Shown one piece after another: positions 12,218 through 31,319 of a DNA stretch of 64,000 nt (position 1 is the stretch's first letter; every line of letters begins with the position of its first letter). The stretch lies in contig CAZXWJ010000001.1 of NCBI GenBank assembly GCA_964644375.1, positions 2,124 to 66,123 of the forward strand, in the 5' to 3' direction. The translations under genes and the position numbers were made by a program. Source of the DNA: an uncultured Desulfobacteraceae bacterium. Its GTDB lineage: Bacteria; Desulfobacterota; DSM-4660; Desulfatiglandales; HGW-15. The notes under the pieces were generated by a model. The model saw only the letters and a list, made by a program, of their open reading frames with translations. It searched no databases and was not told where the DNA came from.

Positions 12218-12625
12218 GTGTGTTAGAGTAAGCCGATAAGCCGGGTTCTGTTTCTCCGGTACCGCGTATTGCGAAACCGGGGACAATGACCATTCATCTT
12301 GCCCCGACGTTACCGTCGGGGTCGAGCGACCTACCCGGGAACTCGAGCGGACCGCCCTTAATCGTTCCCCTATTTGGTTTTGCTCCGGATGGGGTTTACC
12401 TAGCTCCTGTCGTCACCGACTGGACTGGTGAGCTCTTACCTCACCCTTTCACCCTTACTCGACAAAACGGTTCGAGACCTTTCTGTCGGGCGGTTTCCTT
12501 TCTGTGGCACTTTCCTGCCCGTCACCGGGACTGGGGGTTACCCAGCATCCTGTCCTGCGGAGCCCGGACTTTCCTCCCCTTTGCCTGTCTGCAAAGCAGC
12601 GGTCATTTGTCTTACTCTAACACAC
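12218..12625 (-). ncRNA. rnpB: RNase P RNA, bacterial type A
   Basis: The minus strand contains GAGGAAAGTCCGGGCTCC (P4 5' strand), GGGTGAAAGGGTGAGGTAAGAGCTCACC and ACAGAACCCGGCTTATCGG. The P1 helix is GTGTGTTAGAGTAAG (12611-12625) paired with CTTACTCTAACACAC (12218-12232). Confidence 0.93.
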
Positions 12626-12628
12626 GGC

Positions 12629-13369
12629 TTATTGTACATCGTTTCTGACGTCCTGAAAATGTTCGTCTTCACCCCAGTAGATCATACGATTGCAATATGG
12701 GCAGGTCATCAGGACATCACCCTTCAACAATTCGTTGAATTTCTGGGGGGGGAGACCCATATGGCAGGCTTGACAAACCCCTGCGATCACAGCACTAATC
12801 GCTTTCCCCGCCCTCCTTTTTCGAAGAAACTGGTATTTTTTAAGAATATCGTCATTCACGGTCCGGCTGAGTTTTTTGTTCTTTTTTTGAAGACCGTCGA
12901 GCTCTTTATCTAATAGACCGAGTTCTTTTTCGATTTCATGCTTGCCCTGATTGAACTCTGTCTTCAGTCGGTTATGTTCATCTTTGTTGGTCATTTTTTT
13001 CTGTTCAAGGGCTTCGATCTCTTCAAACAGCCGGATCATTTTGTCCTCTGTGTGGGATTTCGTCAATTTAATGTCTTCGATTTCCTTGAGGACTGCGGCG
13101 TATTCCTTGTTTGATTTAATGTTGGAGAGTTTGATGTTGCTTTTTTCAATTTTGCTATCAAAATCCTGGATTTCCTGCTCGATCTGTCGTCTCTCCTTTC
13201 CCAACAGTTCCAGCCTTTCGGAGTCTTCTCGAAATTTTTCTTCAGCAGCGGCGAGGTCCCCCTGAAGGTTTTGAATCCTCAATGGAGCCTTATTTTTCTG
13301 ATCATTGATTGTATTGATCCTGCTGTCGCAGGCCTGAAGTTGTACCAAGATTTTCATTTGGTCCTTCAC
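12629..13369 (-). CDS. C4-type zinc-ribbon coiled-coil protein (COG1579 family)
   Basis: Long heptad-rich coiled coil, then CQACHMGLPPQ...CPYCNRMIY, a four-Cys ribbon. Confidence 0.8.
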   Translation of the reverse strand: MKDQMKILVQLQACDSRINTINDQKNKAPLRIQNLQGDLAAAEEKFREDSERLELLGKERRQIEQEIQDFDSKIEKSNIKLSNIKSNKEYAAVLKEIEDIKLTKSHTEDKMIRLFEEIEALEQKKMTNKDEHNRLKTEFNQGKHEIEKELGLLDKELDGLQKKNKKLSRTVNDDILKKYQFLRKRRAGKAISAVIAGVCQACHMGLPPQKFNELLKGDVLMTCPYCNRMIYWGEDEHFQDVRNDVQ

Positions 13370-14331: not shown

Positions 14332-14589
14332 TTTTTGCTCGAAAATCCCGATAATGAATGCCTTGTAACGATAAAAGAGCCATGAGCCTATCGGATAATT
14401 CCGAAATCCATAGGTCGTTGGAACCTTTAAGGGGAGAAAAAACTATCGTCCGAAAGGGGAGGAATAAAGGAATCCGAAAATCGAAAAGGCGCACCAAATA
14501 AGATGCGCCCTTGATTTTTGCACGACGTGTTGTTTGGAATATCACGGCAATAAAATTTTTTGCTGTCATTATGACAAAATTATTGATGA

Positions 14590-14662
14590 TGGGCCCACCT
14601 GGGTTCGAACCAGGGACCTACCGGTTATGAGCCGGTGGCTCTTCCAGCTGAGCTATAGGCCC
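14590..14662 (-). tRNA. tRNA with CAT anticodon (Met; could be lysidine-modified Ile2)
   Basis: The minus strand reads GGGCCTATAGCTCAGCTGGAAGAGCCACCGGCTCATAACCGGTAGGTCCCTGGTTCGAACCCAGGTGGGCCCA. It folds as a cloverleaf with a 7-bp acceptor stem (one GU), anticodon loop CTCATAA and T-loop GGTTCGAA. CCA is not encoded. Confidence 0.9.
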
Positions 14663-14818
14663 AAACCATTTGCGTTAAACGTAGTCATCAGCATGCAGCT
14701 TGATTAGCCGTTTGTCAAGTGAAATTGACGAACTAAAAAGATCTCTGCACCACTTTAGAGTTTTTAAAAGCCATGATCAATGTCGCTGTGTTTCGGAGAG
14801 CTGAAATGTTATAAAAAT

Positions 14819-22157: not shown

Positions 22158-22244
22158 TGGTGCCGAAGGCGAGACTCGAACTCGCACAGGCATACACCCA
22201 CTAGACCCTGAACCTAGCGCGTCTACCAGTTCCGCCACTTCGGC
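22158..22244 (-). tRNA. tRNA-Leu (CAG), CCA encoded
   Basis: The minus strand reads GCCGAAGTGGCGGAACTGGTAGACGCGCTAGGTTCAGGGTCTAGTGGGTGTATGCCTGTGCGAGTTCGAGTCTCGCCTTCGGCACCA. It has a long variable arm and anticodon loop TTCAGGG. Confidence 0.93.
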
Positions 22245-23522: not shown

Positions 23523-24180
23523 ATCCTATTCAGCCGATAACGGGCGGCGGCCTTCTTTTTTTTAAAAAAGATATTTACTTTTCATACCACTTGCTTTATA
23601 AGACCATTCGTCTACGCAGGAGTAAAGCGTTGCAGGACTGTAACCTAAAAAAAGGCAAATAGCCTCCTGAAAAAGGGCAGGCAGGGTAAATAAAATTTTC
23701 CGGTTACGATGCTTCTGGGTTTTATGAAGTTTTGAGACACCATCTGGAAGCCGGAAAAAAATAATTTGATCTGGGATTTCAAGTCGAGGTTGTCGAGAAT
23801 TCAAGTCGGTTTTTTTAGGGTCGCAAAGCTAACTGTAAAACAAAATATTTCGGAGTCGCAACCCTTTTCCGGCCTAAGGAACCTCATCGTTTCTTGCTTC
23901 TTTGGAGAGACACGAGCATTCACCTTTGTTCGATTCAAGTCTAAGAAATTCCCTCGTCAAATAACCCAACAATTATTATGGCATCGAATAAACCCCGTGA
24001 ACGATTGGTTTCCGTGGTTTTATATTTTTGTTCCAAAAAGCGAAACGGCACAGGATTCAGCGGACCATCGAACCTTGATCTTCGTGTTTTGCAATAGCAT
24101 TGATGGAGAGACTCGAGTTTTTTTCAGTCTGGATACCGGTCCGTTTCATCTTCCTTTTCAGGATAGAGAGCAAGAAAAAA

Positions 24181-25506
24181 ATGAATGATTCCTTTCTCAC
24201 TTTTCCAAAGGGGGGCACACATCCCCCTGAGTCAAAAGCACTCACCGAGCACCTCCCGGTGGAGACACTGCCTCTTCCCGAAGAAGTGGATCTCCTCATG
24301 GTTCAACATTTCGGCGCCCCCTGCACCCCTCTGGTGAAAAAGAAGGGAGACGTCACGGAAGGAGACCTAATCGGCCAGGTGGAAAAAGGGCTTGGGGCCG
24401 GCATTCATGCCAGTGTAACCGGCAAGGTAAAGGATATTGGGGTTTCCGTGAATCCTGTATCCGTTCAAACCCCCTCGGTCACGATCAAAAGGGACCCTGA
24501 GGCCGAACCCAGGTCATACACACCCTCAGATTGGACGGCCCTGTCCAGAGAGGACTTGGTCAAACGGATTAAAGACGCCGGGATCGTGGGCATCGGGGGC
24601 GCGGGATTTCCAACCCATGTCAAACTGGCCCCCCCACCGGAGGCAAAGGTCGATACCCTGATCCTCAACGGTGCGGAATGCGAACCCTATCTTACCACGG
24701 ACCATCGACTGATGCTGGAACACCCGGAAGAGGTTCTGGATGGTGCCAAAATCATACTGGCCGTCTTGGGAATCCAGGAGTGCCATATCGGGGTTGAATC
24801 CAACAAGATGGATGCCGTCGAGGCCCTGAGAAAAGCGGCTCGTGATCAGTCGTCCAATGATTTCCGAATCCACGTGGATGCCCTGGAGGTAAAATACCCC
24901 CAGGGTTCCGAGAAACAACTGATTGAGAGCATTACGGGTCGCAGGGTTCCGGCATTCGGGCTGCCCTTTGATGTGGGAACCATTGTCCAGAATGTGGGAA
25001 CCACCAAGGCCGTTTATGACGCTGCGGTCCTGAACAAACCCCTGTACGAGAAGGTGATCACAATCTCGGGAAAAGGCATTGAAAGGCCGGCAAACCTCAA
25101 GGTAAGAATCGGGACCCGGTTGAGCGATATCGTGTCCTACCTTGGTGGAACGAAACCCGGGTTGTCCAAGGTGGTCATGGGCGGTCCCATGATGGGTTTT
25201 GCTGTTTCCACTCTTGATGTCCCGATCACTAAGACGACCTCCGGCATACTTTTCCTCACCGAGGAGGAGATAGATACCCGCCCCCACAGCAACTGTATTA
25301 GATGCGGATGGTGTCTCGATGCCTGCCCCATGGGCTTATCTCCCAATGAAATAGGTATTTACGTGGAAGCAGGTCGAGCCGAGGACACCGCGCCCTTTGG
25401 GGTGTTCGAGTGTTTTGAGTGCGGGTGTTGTGCCTTTGTCTGTCCGGCGAAACGGCCTCTCGTTCAGTTCATTCGTCTCGCCAAGATGAAGGCAAAGAAA
25501 CAATAA
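24181..25506 (+). CDS. rnfC: Rnf complex subunit C (RnfC)
   Basis: N-terminal barrel-sandwich region, a GGAGFPTHVK NADH/FMN-type block, and two 4Fe-4S motifs (CIRCGWCLDACP and CFECGCCAFVCP). The conserved N-terminus starts at ATG 24181. Confidence 0.92.
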   Translation: MNDSFLTFPKGGTHPPESKALTEHLPVETLPLPEEVDLLMVQHFGAPCTPLVKKKGDVTEGDLIGQVEKGLGAGIHASVTGKVKDIGVSVNPVSVQTPSVTIKRDPEAEPRSYTPSDWTALSREDLVKRIKDAGIVGIGGAGFPTHVKLAPPPEAKVDTLILNGAECEPYLTTDHRLMLEHPEEVLDGAKIILAVLGIQECHIGVESNKMDAVEALRKAARDQSSNDFRIHVDALEVKYPQGSEKQLIESITGRRVPAFGLPFDVGTIVQNVGTTKAVYDAAVLNKPLYEKVITISGKGIERPANLKVRIGTRLSDIVSYLGGTKPGLSKVVMGGPMMGFAVSTLDVPITKTTSGILFLTEEEIDTRPHSNCIRCGWCLDACPMGLSPNEIGIYVEAGRAEDTAPFGVFECFECGCCAFVCPAKRPLVQFIRLAKMKAKKQ

Positions 25507-25527
25507 GACTGAAAAAGGAGTAAAACC

Positions 25528-26583
25528 ATCGAAGAGCCAGCGAAAGAGATCACGCCTGCAGCGACTGATCATTTTCTGTGGGCCGTTTCCATCTCCCCTC
25601 ATGTCAAGAGTGGAGAATCGGTAGAGAAGATCATGTGGACGGTGGTGGCCTGCCTAATGCCGCCCCTCATTTTGTCGATTTTCATCTTCGGCTTCCAGAC
25701 CCTTATCATCACCCTGATCAGCGTGGGAAGCTGCATAGCAGCTGAAGCAGTTTCCCAGAAGCTTCTTAAGCGGCCCGTGACGATCAAGGACGGGAGTGCC
25801 GTCATTACGGGTCTTCTTTTGGCCTATATTATCCCACCGGGCGTCCCTTACTGGTTGCCCATTCTGGGATCCGTCATGGCCATTTATGTTGCCAAACATC
25901 TCTTAGGGGGAGTCGGCTTCAATATTTTCAACCCCGCCCTGATCGGACGTGCCTTTCTGGTCGCCAGCTTTCCCGTGGCCATGACATCGGCATGGCTCAC
26001 TCCTATCCGGGACGCCTCCGTTTTCAAGTATATGGGTACCGGGGTGGACGCACTTTCCACAGCCACGCCCCTCTATATTCTCAAGCATTACGGGATCGGC
26101 GCGGTCATCGAAAAATTCGGTTCTATGTCAACTATTTATACCGATTTCTTCTTGGGCTGGCGACCGGGCTGTATCGGTGAGACTTCGGGGCTTCTGCTTC
26201 TCCTTGGGGGGCTCTATTTGATTTATAAAAAATATATCACCTGGCACATTCCTGTTTCGGTCATTGTGTCGGTTGCCTTCTTTACCTGGGTCTTCGGCGG
26301 AGAAGGGCTCTTCACGGGTAATCCTTTGCTGGCCGTTCTTTCCGGCGGAGTGATCATCGGAGCCTTTTATATGGCCACAGATTACGTGACATCTCCGAAT
26401 AACAAAACCGCCAAGCTTATTTTCGGTGCCGGCATCGGCGCCCTGACGGTTCTTATTCGTTTCAAAGGCGGATACCCTGAGGGCGTATGTTATGCCATTT
26501 TACTCATGAATCCGCTTACGCCCGCTCTTGAGGGGTGGTTTAAACCCAAGCGTTTTGCCCTGCCGAAAGGTGCTGAAAAATGA
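25528..26583 (+). CDS. rnfD: Rnf complex subunit D (RnfD); start codon uncertain (first ATG at 25633)
   Basis: NqrB/RnfD polytopic pattern with the flavinylation-region motif GAFYMATDYVTSP. The conserved N-terminal SxSPHxxSG segment (VSISPHVKSGES) lies upstream of the first ATG. ATC 25528 sits 7 nt after GGAG. Confidence 0.88.
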   Translation: MEEPAKEITPAATDHFLWAVSISPHVKSGESVEKIMWTVVACLMPPLILSIFIFGFQTLIITLISVGSCIAAEAVSQKLLKRPVTIKDGSAVITGLLLAYIIPPGVPYWLPILGSVMAIYVAKHLLGGVGFNIFNPALIGRAFLVASFPVAMTSAWLTPIRDASVFKYMGTGVDALSTATPLYILKHYGIGAVIEKFGSMSTIYTDFFLGWRPGCIGETSGLLLLLGGLYLIYKKYITWHIPVSVIVSVAFFTWVFGGEGLFTGNPLLAVLSGGVIIGAFYMATDYVTSPNNKTAKLIFGAGIGALTVLIRFKGGYPEGVCYAILLMNPLTPALEGWFKPKRFALPKGAEK

Positions 26584-27494
26584 AGGAAATTATTCGCATT
26601 ACCATAGGATTGACGATCACCTGCCTGGTCGCCGCTCTGGTGATGGGCACGGTCTTTGCCGTCACGGACGCGGCCAAGAAACACAACGAGCATGTCAATG
26701 TTCAGGACACCATGCTCGGCCTGCTCGGATACAATCAATCCAACCCTAGGCCGACGGACCTGTCTCTTTTCACCATCTACCGCTACATCCTCGAAGAGGG
26801 AAATAAGCAATATCTCGGGTATCTGGTTCCCGTCGTCGCGAAAGACAAGGAAACCCACGAATTCCTCACCATGGATCTGGAAGGCAAATTCGTAGACCGG
26901 CTCCCCGTGGACCTCACACCGGAAGCCGCCGCCGAGGTGCCCAACCGCACCAGTGCCCTCAAGAAGGCCCTGAAATCCTCAACGGCCTTCTCCTATGCGA
27001 ATGCCACCATCATCGCCACCTTGGGGGACAAACGCCTTGCCTATGTGCTCCCCGGCGAGTTTCCCGGCTTCAAGACCTTTATCAAGGTCATGCTGGCCGT
27101 GGAGCCCGATTTTGACATCCTGGGCCTTGAAATAATGGAGCATGAAGAAGACCCGGGTCTTGGCGGAGAAATCGAACAGCACTATTTCAAAGACCAGTTC
27201 CAGGGGAAAACATTTTCTGTTCTAAAGGCCCTGAAGGTCGTAAAAGAACCCCTTCCTGATGAATACAGACTGGTGCTGGAATCCGCCAACAGTTCAAAGA
27301 ATCCCGACTCCAACAAGGAATCGGAGAGCATTCGAGCTAAGTACTTTGACGACGACATCTATGCCCTGACCGGTGCGACCATTTCCAGCAGGGCCGTCAC
27401 CGGCGGAGTAAAAAATATGGTCAAAAAGTTTGCCTATCGTTTCAAAACGCTCGATGCCGTAATTGCCGCGCAAGGGTTACCCGTTGCTTTCTGA
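26580..27494 (+). CDS. rnfG: Rnf complex subunit G (RnfG), FMN-binding, unusually long (304 aa)
   Basis: N-terminal TM anchor. FMN_bind motif LTGATISSRAVTGG. ATGA overlap with the rnfD stop. Confidence 0.88.
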   Translation: MKEIIRITIGLTITCLVAALVMGTVFAVTDAAKKHNEHVNVQDTMLGLLGYNQSNPRPTDLSLFTIYRYILEEGNKQYLGYLVPVVAKDKETHEFLTMDLEGKFVDRLPVDLTPEAAAEVPNRTSALKKALKSSTAFSYANATIIATLGDKRLAYVLPGEFPGFKTFIKVMLAVEPDFDILGLEIMEHEEDPGLGGEIEQHYFKDQFQGKTFSVLKALKVVKEPLPDEYRLVLESANSSKNPDSNKESESIRAKYFDDDIYALTGATISSRAVTGGVKNMVKKFAYRFKTLDAVIAAQGLPVAF

Positions 27495-27537
27495 TGGGCC
27501 CGGCGACTTATGCTGAGAGGAATAAGGAGAGAATGCC

Positions 27538-28155
27538 TTGCCAGCTACGACCAAAACAAACTCGCAACTTGTAGTAAACGGAATTTTAAACGAAAACCCC
27601 ATCTTCCGCCTGGCCCTTTCCATGTGCCCGGCCGTCGGTATCAGCACCTCGGTCATGAACGGTCTGCTCCTGGGAATCGCCGTCCTGTTCGTGCAGGTCT
27701 TTTCCAGTTGCACGATTGCGGCCATCAAGGACTATATTCATCCCCGCATTCGGATACCGACATACACGCTCACGATTGCGACCTGGGTAACGGTCATCGA
27801 TCTTATGCTGGCGGCCTACATGCCCGCGGCGTACAAGGAAATGGGTATCTTTGTCAAGCTCATAGTCGCCTTTGCCATCATTACCATGCGCTTGGAGACC
27901 TTCGCCTGCAAGAACACGGTAACCTCCTCTTTTTGGGACGGCATCGGCATGGGATTGGGATTCATGTTCGGGATGATGGCTCTCGGTTTCGTCAGAGAGC
28001 TTCTGGGTATGGGAACGCTTTTCGGAGTTGACGTCCTCGGCTTCCGTCCCTTGCTTTTCTTTGTCCTTCCGGCGGCAGGTTTTTTTGCTGTAGGCTTCAT
28101 GATGGCCCTCTATAATTATCTAGAGCTGGCCTATAACCGCAAGAAAAAGGGTTAA
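27538..28155 (+). CDS. rnfE: Rnf complex subunit E (RnfE)
   Basis: NENPIFRLALSMCPAVGISTSVMNGLLLG and the rest match the NqrD/RnfE pattern. TTG start lies 8 nt after GGAG. Confidence 0.9.
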   Translation: MPATTKTNSQLVVNGILNENPIFRLALSMCPAVGISTSVMNGLLLGIAVLFVQVFSSCTIAAIKDYIHPRIRIPTYTLTIATWVTVIDLMLAAYMPAAYKEMGIFVKLIVAFAIITMRLETFACKNTVTSSFWDGIGMGLGFMFGMMALGFVRELLGMGTLFGVDVLGFRPLLFFVLPAAGFFAVGFMMALYNYLELAYNRKKKG

Positions 28156-28161
28156 TAAACG

Positions 28162-29124
28162 ATGTCAGTCTTCAAACGGAACAGTCTGTCTGTATGTCTA
28201 CTCTTGGTCCTAGCCCTGGTCTTTCTGACCGGATGCGGCCCAGAACACTCCTTCATTAAGAAGGTCTCTTTCAAAGACGCACAGAGTATCGTGGTCACCT
28301 TCGCCGGTCCTGTCGATGAGGGGTGGGCTAAAGAACTGAGCAACTACCAAGTTGTTGAGAAACCTGACCCCGATATTCGGCTGAATATCTCTACCGTGAC
28401 CGTCTCTCAAGATAGGATGTCCGTGATTCTGGGTTTTGAAGAGGCCTTGAATCAGGATAGCCCCCATATCCTGACCTTGAGTGAAATTCGCTCTGAGGAC
28501 AAATCTTTGGGGACCGCCATTCTCAGTGTCAAGAAGCTCTATGTGGGGTACCTGTTTTCCATCCTGATCGGCGCCATGGTTATCAACAATTTTGTCTTCA
28601 CAAAGTACCTGGGACTGTGCGTCTTTTTCGGCACATCTCAGAAAAAGAGTACGGCTGTGGGGATGGGCATTACCTTTACCCTGGTGATCGTCGTCAGCGC
28701 CATGATGGCTTGGTTCCTCTATCAATTCGTTCTCAAGCCCTATCGACTCGATTTCCTGCAAATTGTCGTCTTTATTGGGCTGGTCTCCCTCTCGGTACAG
28801 GCGGTGGATACCATCCTGAGAAAGGTGAACCCGATGCTGTTCAAGGCCTTCGGGGTTTACCTAGTTCTCGTTATTGCGAATTGTATCATCATCGCTGTAC
28901 CTCTGATTCTTGCGGATAATGAATACAATGGTTGGGAAAGCCTCATGCTTGCCTTTGGCGCTGGAGTCGGCTTTCTAATTGCACTGTTTTTGATGTCTTC
29001 AGTCCGTGAAAAGCTCGAACTGGCCAATGTCCCGCCTACCTTTAAGGGGCTTCCCATAGCCTTTGTTACGGCGGGTCTTTTTGCCCTTGCTTTTCTGGGA
29101 TTTTCCGGTATGTCTATCTTCTAG
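28162..29124 (+). CDS. rnfA: Rnf complex subunit A (RnfA) fused to an N-terminal lipoprotein-signal + Ig-like domain
   Basis: Residues about 125-320 align end to end with RnfA/NqrE (LIGAMVINNFVFTKYLGLCVFFG...VIANCIIIAVPL...FVTAGLFALAFLGFSG). Residues 1-124 form a signal peptide with lipobox LTGC plus a beta-rich domain. No stop codon separates the two parts. Confidence 0.88.
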   Translation: MSVFKRNSLSVCLLLVLALVFLTGCGPEHSFIKKVSFKDAQSIVVTFAGPVDEGWAKELSNYQVVEKPDPDIRLNISTVTVSQDRMSVILGFEEALNQDSPHILTLSEIRSEDKSLGTAILSVKKLYVGYLFSILIGAMVINNFVFTKYLGLCVFFGTSQKKSTAVGMGITFTLVIVVSAMMAWFLYQFVLKPYRLDFLQIVVFIGLVSLSVQAVDTILRKVNPMLFKAFGVYLVLVIANCIIIAVPLILADNEYNGWESLMLAFGAGVGFLIALFLMSSVREKLELANVPPTFKGLPIAFVTAGLFALAFLGFSGMSIF

Positions 29125-29272
29125 GCCCAAACGGGGCTTGGTCTAACGAATAATGCCAACAGGCATTATTCGGTTGTTGTTCGGTTTGAACGGAATCCGG
29201 CACCCAACGCGGAGAATTAAATGAATCCGCGGGTGTCTTTTGAGATCGCAAAAAAACACCAGAGGAATTTTC

Positions 29273-30139
29273 ATGGATCCTGCATTATTAAAACTGGCCC
29301 TCGGCGGTCTGGCTGTTTTAGGTTGTATTGGTCTTTTTTTCGGTATTGGCCTGGCCTTGGCCGCACACAAATTTGCCGTTAAGGCCAATCCACAGGTTGA
29401 AGAAGTCCTTGAAGTACTTGCAGGCGCCCAGTGAGGCGGCTGCGGCTTCGCCGGGTGCGAAGCATATGCCGAGGCCGTTGTCAATGATCCCGATGTCCCA
29501 CCCAATCTCTGCTTTCCCGGTAAGGCGGCCGTAGCGGAGTTGGTGGCGGAGATTACAGGCAAAAAAATGGCTGCTGTAGAAGACATGGTGGCCGCCGTAC
29601 GATGTTCAAGACAGGAAGGCAAAGTCGAACAAAAATACCGCTACATAGGTTACGGCTCATGCACGGGTGCCAATCTTGCTTTTGGAGGACCTCAGGGGTG
29701 CTCCTACGCGTGTGTGGGGTTGGGAGAGTGTGCGGATGCCTGCCCCTTTGACGCCATCACTATGGTGGACGGTTTCCCCCGGATTGATACCGAGGCCTGT
29801 GTGGGATGCGGGAGTTGTGTACGCACCTGCCCGAAAAAAATTATCGAACTCATTCCACTCAAGGCAAGGGTCTGGGTTCCCTGCAGCACCAAGGATCCCG
29901 GCAAAGCAGTACGTAAGATCTGCGAGATCGGTTGTATATCCTGTAAGATGTGCGTAAAGGTGTGCCCTGCAAAGGCCGTCACCCTTGAGGACAATATCGT
30001 CAAAATCGACCAGCAGAAGTGCCTGGACTACGGTTCAGAGTGTGGTGAAATCTGTGTGGAAAAGTGTCCGAGAAATATTTTCAGGCCCTACTCTACCGAT
30101 CAGGAAAAAGGCAGAGGCACCCTGACTGCGGCAGGCTGA
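29273..30139 (+). CDS. rnfB: Rnf complex subunit B (RnfB), read through in-frame TGA 29432-29434 as probable selenocysteine
   Basis: ORF-track pieces 29240-29434 and 29540-30139 are in the same frame, with no other stop between them. The joined product has an N-terminal TM helix, the motif AQ-[TGA]-GGCGFAGC...NLCFPG (the RnfB C-x2-C-x4-C-x16-C cluster site) and C-terminal polyferredoxin motifs. ATG 29273 lies 6 nt after AGAGGA. Confidence 0.85.
29445..29463 (+). promoter_or_regulatory. SECIS-like hairpin downstream of the rnfB TGA
   Basis: GCTTCGC-CGGGT-GCGAAGC: a perfect 7-bp stem with a 5-nt loop containing GGU, beginning 10 nt after the TGA. A possible lower stem pairs CGGC (29437-29440) with GCCG (29468-29471). 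Confidence 0.6.
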
Positions 30140-30260
30140 CATGATAACCACTTCAAAGGTCTGAGATCCGAATCTCGTAACATCCGGGGAATTACAAAAA
30201 AGTTGCTATCCCCCTGCCGGGATGGTAAAATCGATATCATTTTTTTGCTGGAGGCATGAC

Positions 30261-31319
30261 ATGAAAAACATGGATCAGCTGTCCCTACAAGGGGCCTTAA
30301 ACCGCCGGTCATTTCTTAAACTCTCCGGAATTTTGGGAGTAGGCGTAGCGTCAACCGGACTGGTGCCCCTCACGGCGGAAGCGGTCAGGTTTAACAGAAA
30401 GCAGTACAAGATATCCAAGACCCGACTGGCCATGGGCACGGTCGTTTCCATGACCCTGATTCACACGTCCAGAGACAAGGCTGAAAAGGCGATGGACCTG
30501 GCCTTTGATGAAATCGACAGGTTGACAGGATTGATGAGCCGTTTCGATAATGCCACAGCAGTCGCCTTACTGAACCGTGAGGGTTACCTGAAAGACCTTC
30601 CTCCGGAGGTGGCGCAAGTGGTCGACCGTTCTTTGCAGTACCACAAAGTCAGCCGGGGAGCCTTTGATATTACGGTCAAGCCTGTTGTAGATCTTTTCAA
30701 GAAGTCCTTTGAAGGGGAGGCCGCAAAAGGCCCTTCTGAGAAGGCCCTGAACGAGGCCCTTCAACTGGTGGATGCCGGAAACGTGACTCTTACGGGTCGC
30801 TCCGTTTCTTTCAAAAAGCCTGGAATGGGCATCACTCTGGACGGTATTGCCAAAGGCTACATTGTGGATCGGGCCTCCCAAATTCTTTCGAATCACGGCA
30901 TCAAAAATCATTTGATCAATGCAGGGGGCGACATCAGGACCAGGGGAGAAAAAGCCGAAAAGAAGCCTTGGACCGTCGCGATTCAGGACCCCCAAAAGAA
31001 AAAGAACTATCCCGATATCATACATATGCGAGATGGCGCTGTGGCCACTTCGGGGGATTATGAAATCTACTACGATCGTGAAAAGATGTTTCACCATATT
31101 GTGATCCCCCAAACAGGACTCTCTCCCGAACTGAACGCCAGTGTTTCCGTGCTGGCTGACACGGCCATGGATGCGGACGCCCTTTCGACGAGCGTCTTCG
31201 TCATGGCCCCCGAGAAGGGCATCCGCTTCATCAATACGATGGCCCAGTGTGAGTGCCTCATCATCGCCAAAGAGGGAAATCTGCTGAAATCGAAGGGATG
31301 GAAAAACGCTCAAGCGTAA
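30261..31319 (+). CDS. apbE: FAD:protein FMN transferase ApbE with Tat signal
   Basis: Twin-arginine signal NRRSFLKLSGILGVGVAS. ApbE blocks MGT, DITV, GIAKGY, NAGGDI and VATSGDYE. ATG 30261 lies 6 nt after GGAGG. Confidence 0.9.
   Translation: MKNMDQLSLQGALNRRSFLKLSGILGVGVASTGLVPLTAEAVRFNRKQYKISKTRLAMGTVVSMTLIHTSRDKAEKAMDLAFDEIDRLTGLMSRFDNATAVALLNREGYLKDLPPEVAQVVDRSLQYHKVSRGAFDITVKPVVDLFKKSFEGEAAKGPSEKALNEALQLVDAGNVTLTGRSVSFKKPGMGITLDGIAKGYIVDRASQILSNHGIKNHLINAGGDIRTRGEKAEKKPWTVAIQDPQKKKNYPDIIHMRDGAVATSGDYEIYYDREKMFHHIVIPQTGLSPELNASVSVLADTAMDADALSTSVFVMAPEKGIRFINTMAQCECLIIAKEGNLLKSKGWKNAQA

Follow-up and report, generated by a model that had tools for sequence, protein, structure and literature searches.

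The window analysed here, a stretch of 64,000 nucleotides of contig CAZXWJ010000001.1 (assembly GCA_964644375.1) from an uncultured Desulfobacteraceae bacterium, carries an rnf gene cluster in which rnfB, the gene for subunit B of the Rnf electron transport complex, contains an in-frame TGA. We translated positions 29273-30139 from the ATG at 29273 and obtained 288 residues with a single internal stop, the TGA at codon 54, which is very probably read as selenocysteine (Sec) with the help of a hairpin directly 3' of it. The mechanical list of open reading frames (ORFs) gives the gene as two ORFs in the same frame, 29240-29434 and 29540-30139, and list and translation agree with an earlier reading of the bare letters (the sequence-only reading), which had described rnfB as split by one in-frame TGA. 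The features of the gene, including a hairpin resembling a selenocysteine insertion sequence (SECIS), are:

29273-30139, plus strand: entire rnfB coding sequence of 288 codons and a stop, with the internal TGA taken as sense (translation, NF005503 profile, alignment with RnfB from the PDB)
29285-29365, plus strand: N-terminal membrane-anchor helix region, about residues 5-31, LLKLALGGLAVLGCIGLFFGIGLALAA (hydrophobic stretch; boundaries approximate)
29432-29434, plus strand: in-frame TGA, codon 54, predicted Sec at the first ligand position of U-x2-C-x4-C-x17-C (aligned with the Cys of homologues)
29435-29444, plus strand: 10-nt spacer between TGA and hairpin, made of codons G55, G56 and C57 and the first base of G58
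29441-29443, plus strand: Cys57 codon, second motif ligand (sequence, translation)
29445-29463, plus strand: SECIS-like hairpin, a 7-bp stem pairing 29445-29451 with 29457-29463 around a 5-nt loop, CGGGU, at 29452-29456 (sequence, folding)
29456-29458, plus strand: Cys62 codon, for the third ligand; the loop ends with its T, and the 3' arm of the hairpin begins with its G and C
29510-29512, plus strand: Cys80 codon, fourth ligand (C80 is invariant in the alignment)
30137-30139, plus strand: true stop of rnfB, also TGA (translation)

The protein read through the TGA has the features by which an RnfB would be recognized: its profile score, its location in an rnf cluster, and a transmembrane helix followed by the motif of the FdI domain and by ferredoxin-type cluster motifs. 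If codon 54 is given as Cys, its best-matching NCBIfam model is NF005503 (“RnfABCDGE type electron transport complex subunit B”), at 455.3 bits vs. a cut-off of 252. Residues 15-275 align with RnfB of Clostridium tetanomorphum (7zc6_B, E=6e-61), and the protein also aligns with that of Acetobacterium woodii (9eri_B). Residues from about 5 to 31 align with the N-terminal part of the C. tetanomorphum protein, in which the transmembrane helix comprises residues 1-29 (PMC9588780). In the alignment with the solved RnfB the TGA lies opposite the first Cys of “GANCGGCGFAGCDAYA”, and all 14 close homologues examined carry Cys at this position, in the context Q/N/R-C-G-G/A-C-G. The sequence-only reading was therefore right to place the TGA exactly at the first Cys of the N-terminal motif; the other three Cys that it named are present as well, but the spacing before the last of them is x17 (C62 to C80) and not the x16 that it gave. 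The best 120 protein homologues are full length, except for this organism's own 199-aa call.

The TGA is present in five of five independent assemblies of the same organism, made from different samples or runs (in contigs encoding the 53-residue N-terminal fragment); one of the five has two single-nucleotide differences elsewhere in rnfB and keeps the TGA. We scanned one genome per bacterial species with the exact degenerate pattern TGA-GGN-GSN-TGY-GGN-TWY-SCN-GGN-TGY-GAR, for which about one chance match or fewer is expected by our own estimate, and found at least 119 loci. Every locus listed is an rnfB with TGA at the codon equivalent to 54, with a conserved membrane helix upstream of it, 28-325 open codons on its 5' side and, where the contig permits, 230-295 codons on its 3' side. 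Among the matches listed, the loci bear the labels Desulfobacterales, Desulfatiglandales, Desulfomonilales, Syntrophales and Thermodesulfovibrionales/Nitrospirota, the isolates include Syntrophus buswellii DM-2, Desulfonema magnum 4be13 and Desulfosarcina alkanivorans PL12, and pairwise identity of the Sec-form RnfB goes down to 34%. The same pattern with TGH as its first codon, applied to metagenome contigs, gave 28 genes with TGA (23%), 66 with TGC and 26 with TGT (n=120).

Outside the searched pattern, entropy at codon positions 1/2/3 was 0.48/0.38/1.61 bits after the TGA vs. 0.61/0.45/1.61 bits upstream of it; since variation is concentrated at third positions on both sides, the frame is translated through the TGA. 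Between the TGA and the first possible in-frame start (TTG at 29540) lie 35 codons, which encode three of the four cluster ligands and are under purifying selection like the rest of the gene. The recurrence of the TGA, together with third-position variation that continues past it, bears out the proposal that the gene encodes a probable Sec-containing RnfB. Sec and Cys forms of RnfB are interleaved in three subfamilies, with about 11 switches between them by Fitch counting on a rough neighbour-joining tree, a number that is indicative only.

The hairpin 3' of the TGA

The stem consists of GCTTCGC (29445-29451) and GCGAAGC (29457-29463) around the loop CGGGT (29452-29456); it is perfect over its 7 bp and begins 10 nt after the TGA, just as the sequence-only reading had described it. 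It lies in the codons of G58-F59-A60-G61-C62-E63-A64, appears in the fold of 29432-29480, and stands at the same distance from the TGA in all Sec-form genes, whose alignment is ungapped. Like the bSECISearch consensus for bacterial SECIS (bSECIS) elements and the minimal SECIS of Escherichia coli fdhF, it is a stem-loop directly 3' of the UGA inside the coding sequence, with a small loop holding a G followed by G or U. The minimal fdhF element begins about 11 nt after its UGA, and a bulged U is important in it; the rnfB element differs from it in that its stem is a perfect helix without bulged U, that there is no conserved lower stem, and that binding of SelB is only predicted. A lower helix from the 40-nt fold of the window is 62.7% paired across the Sec forms, hence not conserved, and was excluded from the element.

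The bSECIS model calls for a loop of 3-9 nt, an upper stem of 4-16 bp, a G at loop position 1, 2 or both, in most cases with G or U after it, a UGA-to-loop distance of 16-37 nt and a free energy of -7.5 kcal/mol or lower (PMC13188914). The rnfB hairpin has a 5-nt loop, C-G-G-G-U, with G at loop position 2 followed by G, a 7-bp stem, 17 nt between UGA and loop (29435-29451) and, as a 19-mer, an energy of -9.7 kcal/mol. Among the matches listed, each of the 115 distinct Sec sequences from genomes has G at loop positions 2 and 3, an invariance that is imposed by the GGN of the search pattern.

We then compared 137 distinct Sec (TGA) genes with 88 distinct Cys (TGC/TGT) genes that share one amino-acid pattern. 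On average 6.4 of the seven pairs are formed in Sec genes vs. 4.7 in Cys genes, and mean stem energy is -8.2 vs. 0.0 kcal/mol (Mann-Whitney p=3e-33). The contrast is kept in each of three subfamilies (p=9e-7, 5e-7, and 3e-4) and among genes with an identical heptapeptide, and across 134 Sec-form sequences 91.6% of the cells are paired, vs. 27-47% when the 3' partner is slid. It extends to the positions that the protein leaves free. In 136 of 137 Sec genes, vs. 51% of Cys genes, the wobble base of Gly58 forms a pair with the base that opens codon 64; in the Sec genes this pair is C-G when codon 64 is Ala or Gly (102 genes), G-C when it is Gln (20) and A-U when it is Ser (14). Phe, whose TTY codon pairs with the A of GAA, is preferred over Tyr at residue 59 in 92% of Sec vs. 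38% of Cys genes; at the wobble base of Phe, C-G is chosen over U-G in 119 of 137 Sec vs. 24 of 88 Cys genes; and Sec genes favour C over T at position 17 and Ala over Pro. Judged from this comparison, the hairpin is under selection only in the genes with TGA, and the SECIS-like character claimed for it from the window alone has thus held up, both against the published constraints and in its restriction to TGA genes. Because the hairpin lies within the codons of the cluster loop, RNA pairing would constrain the choice of Phe over Tyr and of the wobble bases in these genes.

Several side observations concern the same codons. Among the Sec-form loci (L002-L120 and L124-L234; offsets +18 and +26), genes for G-F-P-G-C-E-A have TGT as the Cys62 codon in 27 of 33 cases and genes with Ala as the loop residue have TGC in 38 of 46; where Pro is encoded, no standard pair is possible at this position, so that simple pairing fails to account for the U preferred there. 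A few Cys-type rnfB genes (e.g., L144; proteins P0121-P0125) encode G-F-A-G-C-E-A with the hairpin largely preserved (mean -7.0 kcal/mol, n=3), and the peptide is found in close Cys relatives of D. alkanivorans RnfB as well; such Cys genes could be fossil SECIS elements or pre-adapted precursors. A single TGA-containing rnfB among those compared lacks the hairpin: L030 (JALVMZ010000196.1, from a Desulfobacteraceae metagenome-assembled genome, 3.2x contig coverage), which encodes G-Y-P-G-C-E-G with Cys-type wobble bases and works as an internal negative control. Its TGA probably arose through an error in sequencing or through a recent nonsense mutation.

How the TGA may be read

On the comparative evidence it is very probable that rnfB encodes a selenoprotein in which the TGA of codon 54 is read as Sec by means of the gene's own hairpin signal. 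The UGA at codon 54 would be decoded as Sec during translation, the stem-loop 10 nt 3' of it (7 bp, loop CGGGU) would recruit SelB with Sec-tRNA(Sec) to the ribosome, and the UGA at codon 289, which has no such hairpin, would terminate the protein. One and the same rnfB mRNA would hold UGA in both roles, as predicted Sec codon and as stop. The signal would be built from the codons of the cluster-binding loop, G-F-A-G-C-E-A.

A number of results weigh against the Sec reading. No selA, selB, selD or tRNA-Sec was found within the 64-kb window, the whole of which was also scanned with the Rfam tRNA-Sec model, and we found no protein-level evidence for any member of the Sec-RnfB family; the reading rests on comparative evidence and on related lineages known as heavy users of Sec. 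The Sec and Cys samples come from different collections, with phylogeny handled only by the split into subfamilies, and the compensatory states at the sole covarying pair follow the three subfamilies and thus represent few independent events. A search of Rfam around the TGA at E up to 10 returned no match. The remaining points concern the hairpin itself. Five of its seven pairs are forced by the codons GGN-TTY-GCN-GGN-TGY-GAR-GCN for G-F-A-G-C-E-A; folds of 29432-29480 and 29420-29500 are no better than dinucleotide shuffles (z = -0.86 and -0.44); and RNAalifold on 134 Sec-form sequences gave a consensus of near-zero energy from which the hairpin was missing. The fold of the single window, not being exceptional, is no evidence on its own, and selection on the hairpin is shown only by the comparative data.

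Taken with the few Cys genes that encode G-F-A-G-C-E-A and retain most of the stem, these last points could mean that the TGA is indeed Sec but that the 7-bp hairpin is a mere by-product of the peptide, with the real signal elsewhere or of another shape. We consider this improbable, since it is at the free positions that Sec and Cys genes differ: the Gly wobble base is complementary in nearly every Sec gene vs. about half of the Cys genes, C is favoured at position 17, and Phe and Ala are favoured over Tyr and Pro. Moreover, the sole TGA gene without the hairpin is the low-coverage L030, and no alternative structure emerged, the candidate lower helix being so poorly paired.

That the TGA is a genuine stop, leaving either a pseudogene or a 53-residue membrane peptide followed by a separately started C-terminal ferredoxin-like protein, is what present annotation implies. 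Gene callers give 53-aa and 199-aa products in the ENA assemblies, and in public annotation this organism's rnfB exists only as products of 53 aa and of 190-199 aa. The Sec-rnfB of D. magnum (L066, NZ_CP061800.1, 2680001-2688000; protein P0132) is deposited as a 227-aa “NADH dehydrogenase protein” (QTA87493.1 / UniRef A0A975GP32), which begins at a Val codon located after the TGA and has neither the membrane helix nor three of the four FdI ligands. The absence of Sec machinery from the window would also fit a stop. However, neither product would possess a complete FdI cluster site, the 35 codons after the TGA hold three of the four ligands and are constrained by purifying selection just as the other parts of the gene are, and pseudogenes would not be expected to keep a TGA at one particular Cys codon across more than 130 divergent genes, nor to show a hairpin selected at that place only. 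We regard a genuine stop as highly improbable.

It is also barely plausible that the UGA is read through without selenium, whether by near-cognate insertion of Cys or Trp or by insertion of Cys on tRNA(Sec) under selenium scarcity, so that residue 54 would be Cys or another residue. Sequence cannot tell Sec from Cys inserted by tRNA(Sec), but the hairpin conforms to the bSECIS model of the SelB type, heavy use of Sec is known from the lineages concerned (31 selenoproteins have been reported in Desulfobacterium autotrophicum; PMC2702500), and the gene's own stop is TGA, which indicates that UGA is not generally reassigned. An error for TGC or TGT, although a single base separates TGA from a Cys codon and L030 is probably such a case, is almost certainly not the explanation, given that five assemblies built from different samples, including that of a strain variant, agree on the TGA, and that the window's rnfB has the full Sec-type hairpin signature. 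By all of this comparative evidence, the TGA is neither an error nor the mark of a pseudogene.

The rnf cluster and the rest of the window

According to NCBIfam matches, the gene order is rnfC-D-G-E-A-B-apbE, from 24100 to 31319 on the plus strand:

24100-25506, plus strand: rnfC (NCBIfam match; start uncertain)
25633-26583, plus strand: rnfD (NCBIfam match)
26580-27494, plus strand: rnfG (NCBIfam match)
27538-28155, plus strand: rnfE (NCBIfam match)
28162-29124, plus strand: rnfA (NCBIfam match)
30222-31319, plus strand: apbE, flavin transferase maturing RnfG/RnfD, directly 3' of rnfB (NCBIfam match; Pfam ApbE, 257 bits)

Two of these genes encode proteins with a long N-terminal part outside the recognized domain. 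The rnfA ORF encodes 320 aa, with the Rnf-Nqr domain confined to residues 132-317; its first approximately 130 residues (window 28162-28560) consist of a lipoprotein-like signal, MSVFKRNSLSVCLLLVLALVFLTGC, with the lipobox LTGC, and then of a domain of about 100 residues without Pfam match. There is no gap between this ORF and the stop of rnfE, and sister assemblies make the identical 320-aa call. RnfG, of 304 aa, has its FMN-binding domain at residues 163-281 and a long N-terminal part (window 26580-27060) that is likewise without Pfam match. The spacer between rnfA and rnfB measures 148 nt and holds a perfect 11-bp hairpin, CGAATAATGCC-AACA-GGCATTATTCG, followed by GTTGTTGTTC, at 29147-29172. 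This terminator-like element might be an attenuator or a processing site inside the rnf cluster, just 5' of the selenoprotein gene.

Elsewhere in the window the genes are housekeeping genes. The ORFs whose size would suit Sec machinery were identified as dnaK, clpB, queA, secF, argS and similar genes. No second TGA-interrupted gene was found in the window; every other long in-frame TGA junction there is explained by an ordinary gene end or a shadow frame. A bacterial class A RNase P RNA (330 bits) lies at 12221-12618 on the minus strand, and because of their overlap with it the mechanical ORFs 12428-12913 (plus strand) and, in part, 12629-13369 (minus strand) are doubtful as genes. Genes for tRNA-Met (14588-14663) and tRNA-Leu(CAG) (22158-22244) are both on the minus strand.

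A catalogued family and the predicted place of selenium in Rnf

Whether a Sec-containing RnfB had already been catalogued was left open by the sequence-only reading. It has been, although not under the name RnfB. NF005503 appears as a row in a review table of selenoproteins, with the motif UxxC and one Sec per protein (PMC13188914), and PRK07118 appears in the same manner in a 2022 review, with ABC78902.1 as its example (PMC9312934). The examples listed for the catalogued family are WP_258165141.1 and ABC78902.1, and the link to the window protein is made by shared profile and motif. The window protein has NF005503 as its best NCBIfam model, carries UxxC as U54-G-G-C57, and would contain one Sec; since best model and U-G-G-C motif coincide, the family is one that has already been catalogued, whereas the reviews give neither the name RnfB nor cluster, SECIS or distribution. 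The main text of the GOS paper credited as the source of the family (PMC2398784) mentions neither Rnf nor Fe-S, and a 2006 Genome Biology paper has no Rnf entry. Sec in RnfB is not mentioned in the Rnf papers that we searched, in the genome papers on D. multivorans and D. autotrophicum (the latter including its supplement), in a deep-sea Chloroflexi paper, in physiology papers on S. aciditrophicus or in the Haft selenoprotein preprint.

Thus, rnfB in the window is a genuine, unannotated member of an already catalogued and widespread selenoprotein family. What is new is the identification of that family as RnfB, its breadth (the loci and the share of pattern-matched metagenome genes given above), the predicted placement of Sec on the mobile FdI cluster, and a SECIS that appears to be written in the codons of the cluster-binding loop and to constrain the residues of that loop. 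In the Rnf papers and selenoproteome reviews that we read, we found no discussion of an overlap between SECIS and cluster loop.

RnfB consists of an N-terminal membrane helix, the flexibly tethered FdI and a larger multi-cluster domain; FdI holds one [4Fe-4S] cluster (RnfB-1) on a four-Cys motif, the larger domain takes electrons from ferredoxin, and a swinging motion of FdI has been proposed to connect that domain with the intramembrane [2Fe-2S] of RnfA/E (PMC9588780; PMC12174285). Even in the Cys enzymes FdI is poorly resolved, and its cluster has been modelled and not resolved (PMC9588780; PMC12174285). Since the motif belongs to FdI, residue 54 is at a ligand position of the RnfB cluster that comes last when electrons run from ferredoxin to NAD, and the predicted Sec54 would therefore lie on the mobile FdI cluster and not on the cluster of ferredoxin entry, where the sequence-only reading had put it. 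Sec54 would replace the first Cys of U-x2-C-x4-C-x17-C, in a domain that would sit between the multi-cluster, ferredoxin-accepting domain and the intramembrane [2Fe-2S] of RnfA/E; its selenium would be expected to ligate the cluster and may affect redox potential or stability. The solved RnfB proteins (7zc6_B, 9eri_B and 8ahx_B of A. vinelandii) share with the window protein the transmembrane helix, the small four-Cys FdI and the poly-ferredoxin domains after it; they have Cys where the window protein has the predicted Sec.

Binding of a metal or cluster is predicted for about one-fifth of selenoprotein families (PMC13188914). HdrA, FrhD/VhuD, [NiFeSe] hydrogenase, the HgcB ferredoxin and 2Fe-2S CopZ-like proteins resemble the predicted Sec-RnfB in having Sec at a metal or cluster Cys site, in low-potential electron transfer and in their occurrence in strict anaerobes; they belong to other folds and complexes, whereas the RnfB site is on the mobile shuttle domain of an ion-pumping respiratory complex.

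A broader interpretation can be offered tentatively, as one that we think somewhat less likely to be correct than not. One stretch of sequence would serve both as recoding signal and as cluster-binding loop, with RNA pairing dictating the residues beside the Fe-S ligands (Phe instead of Tyr, Ala in preference to Pro), and Cys genes that already encode G-F-A-G-C-E-A, being near a working SECIS, would be pre-adapted to acquire Sec, which would account for the interleaving of Sec and Cys forms in three subfamilies and for the repeated switches. In syntrophs and sulfate reducers, which are limited in energy, selenium may in this way have been placed repeatedly on the mobile [4Fe-4S] cluster that docks to RnfA/E, where it would adjust the step by which ion pumping or reverse electron flow is gated.

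Many strict anaerobes have Rnf as their central ferredoxin:NAD+ ion pump, and a large share of the genomes of Desulfobacterota and Thermodesulfovibrionales seems to encode an electron-input subunit of Rnf that needs selenium. Because standard gene calls split or truncate Sec-rnfB, metabolic reconstructions would see a defective RnfB, and proteomic searches that depend on such annotations would miss the peptide that holds Sec. Rnf may also be compromised when cells are grown, or the gene is expressed, with no attention to the supply of selenium. The natural pair of Sec and Cys forms at a [4Fe-4S] ligand on a mobile shuttle domain would also offer a clean system for selenium ligation of a low-potential cluster, and the family shows how a SECIS within the coding region can constrain the protein that it encodes.

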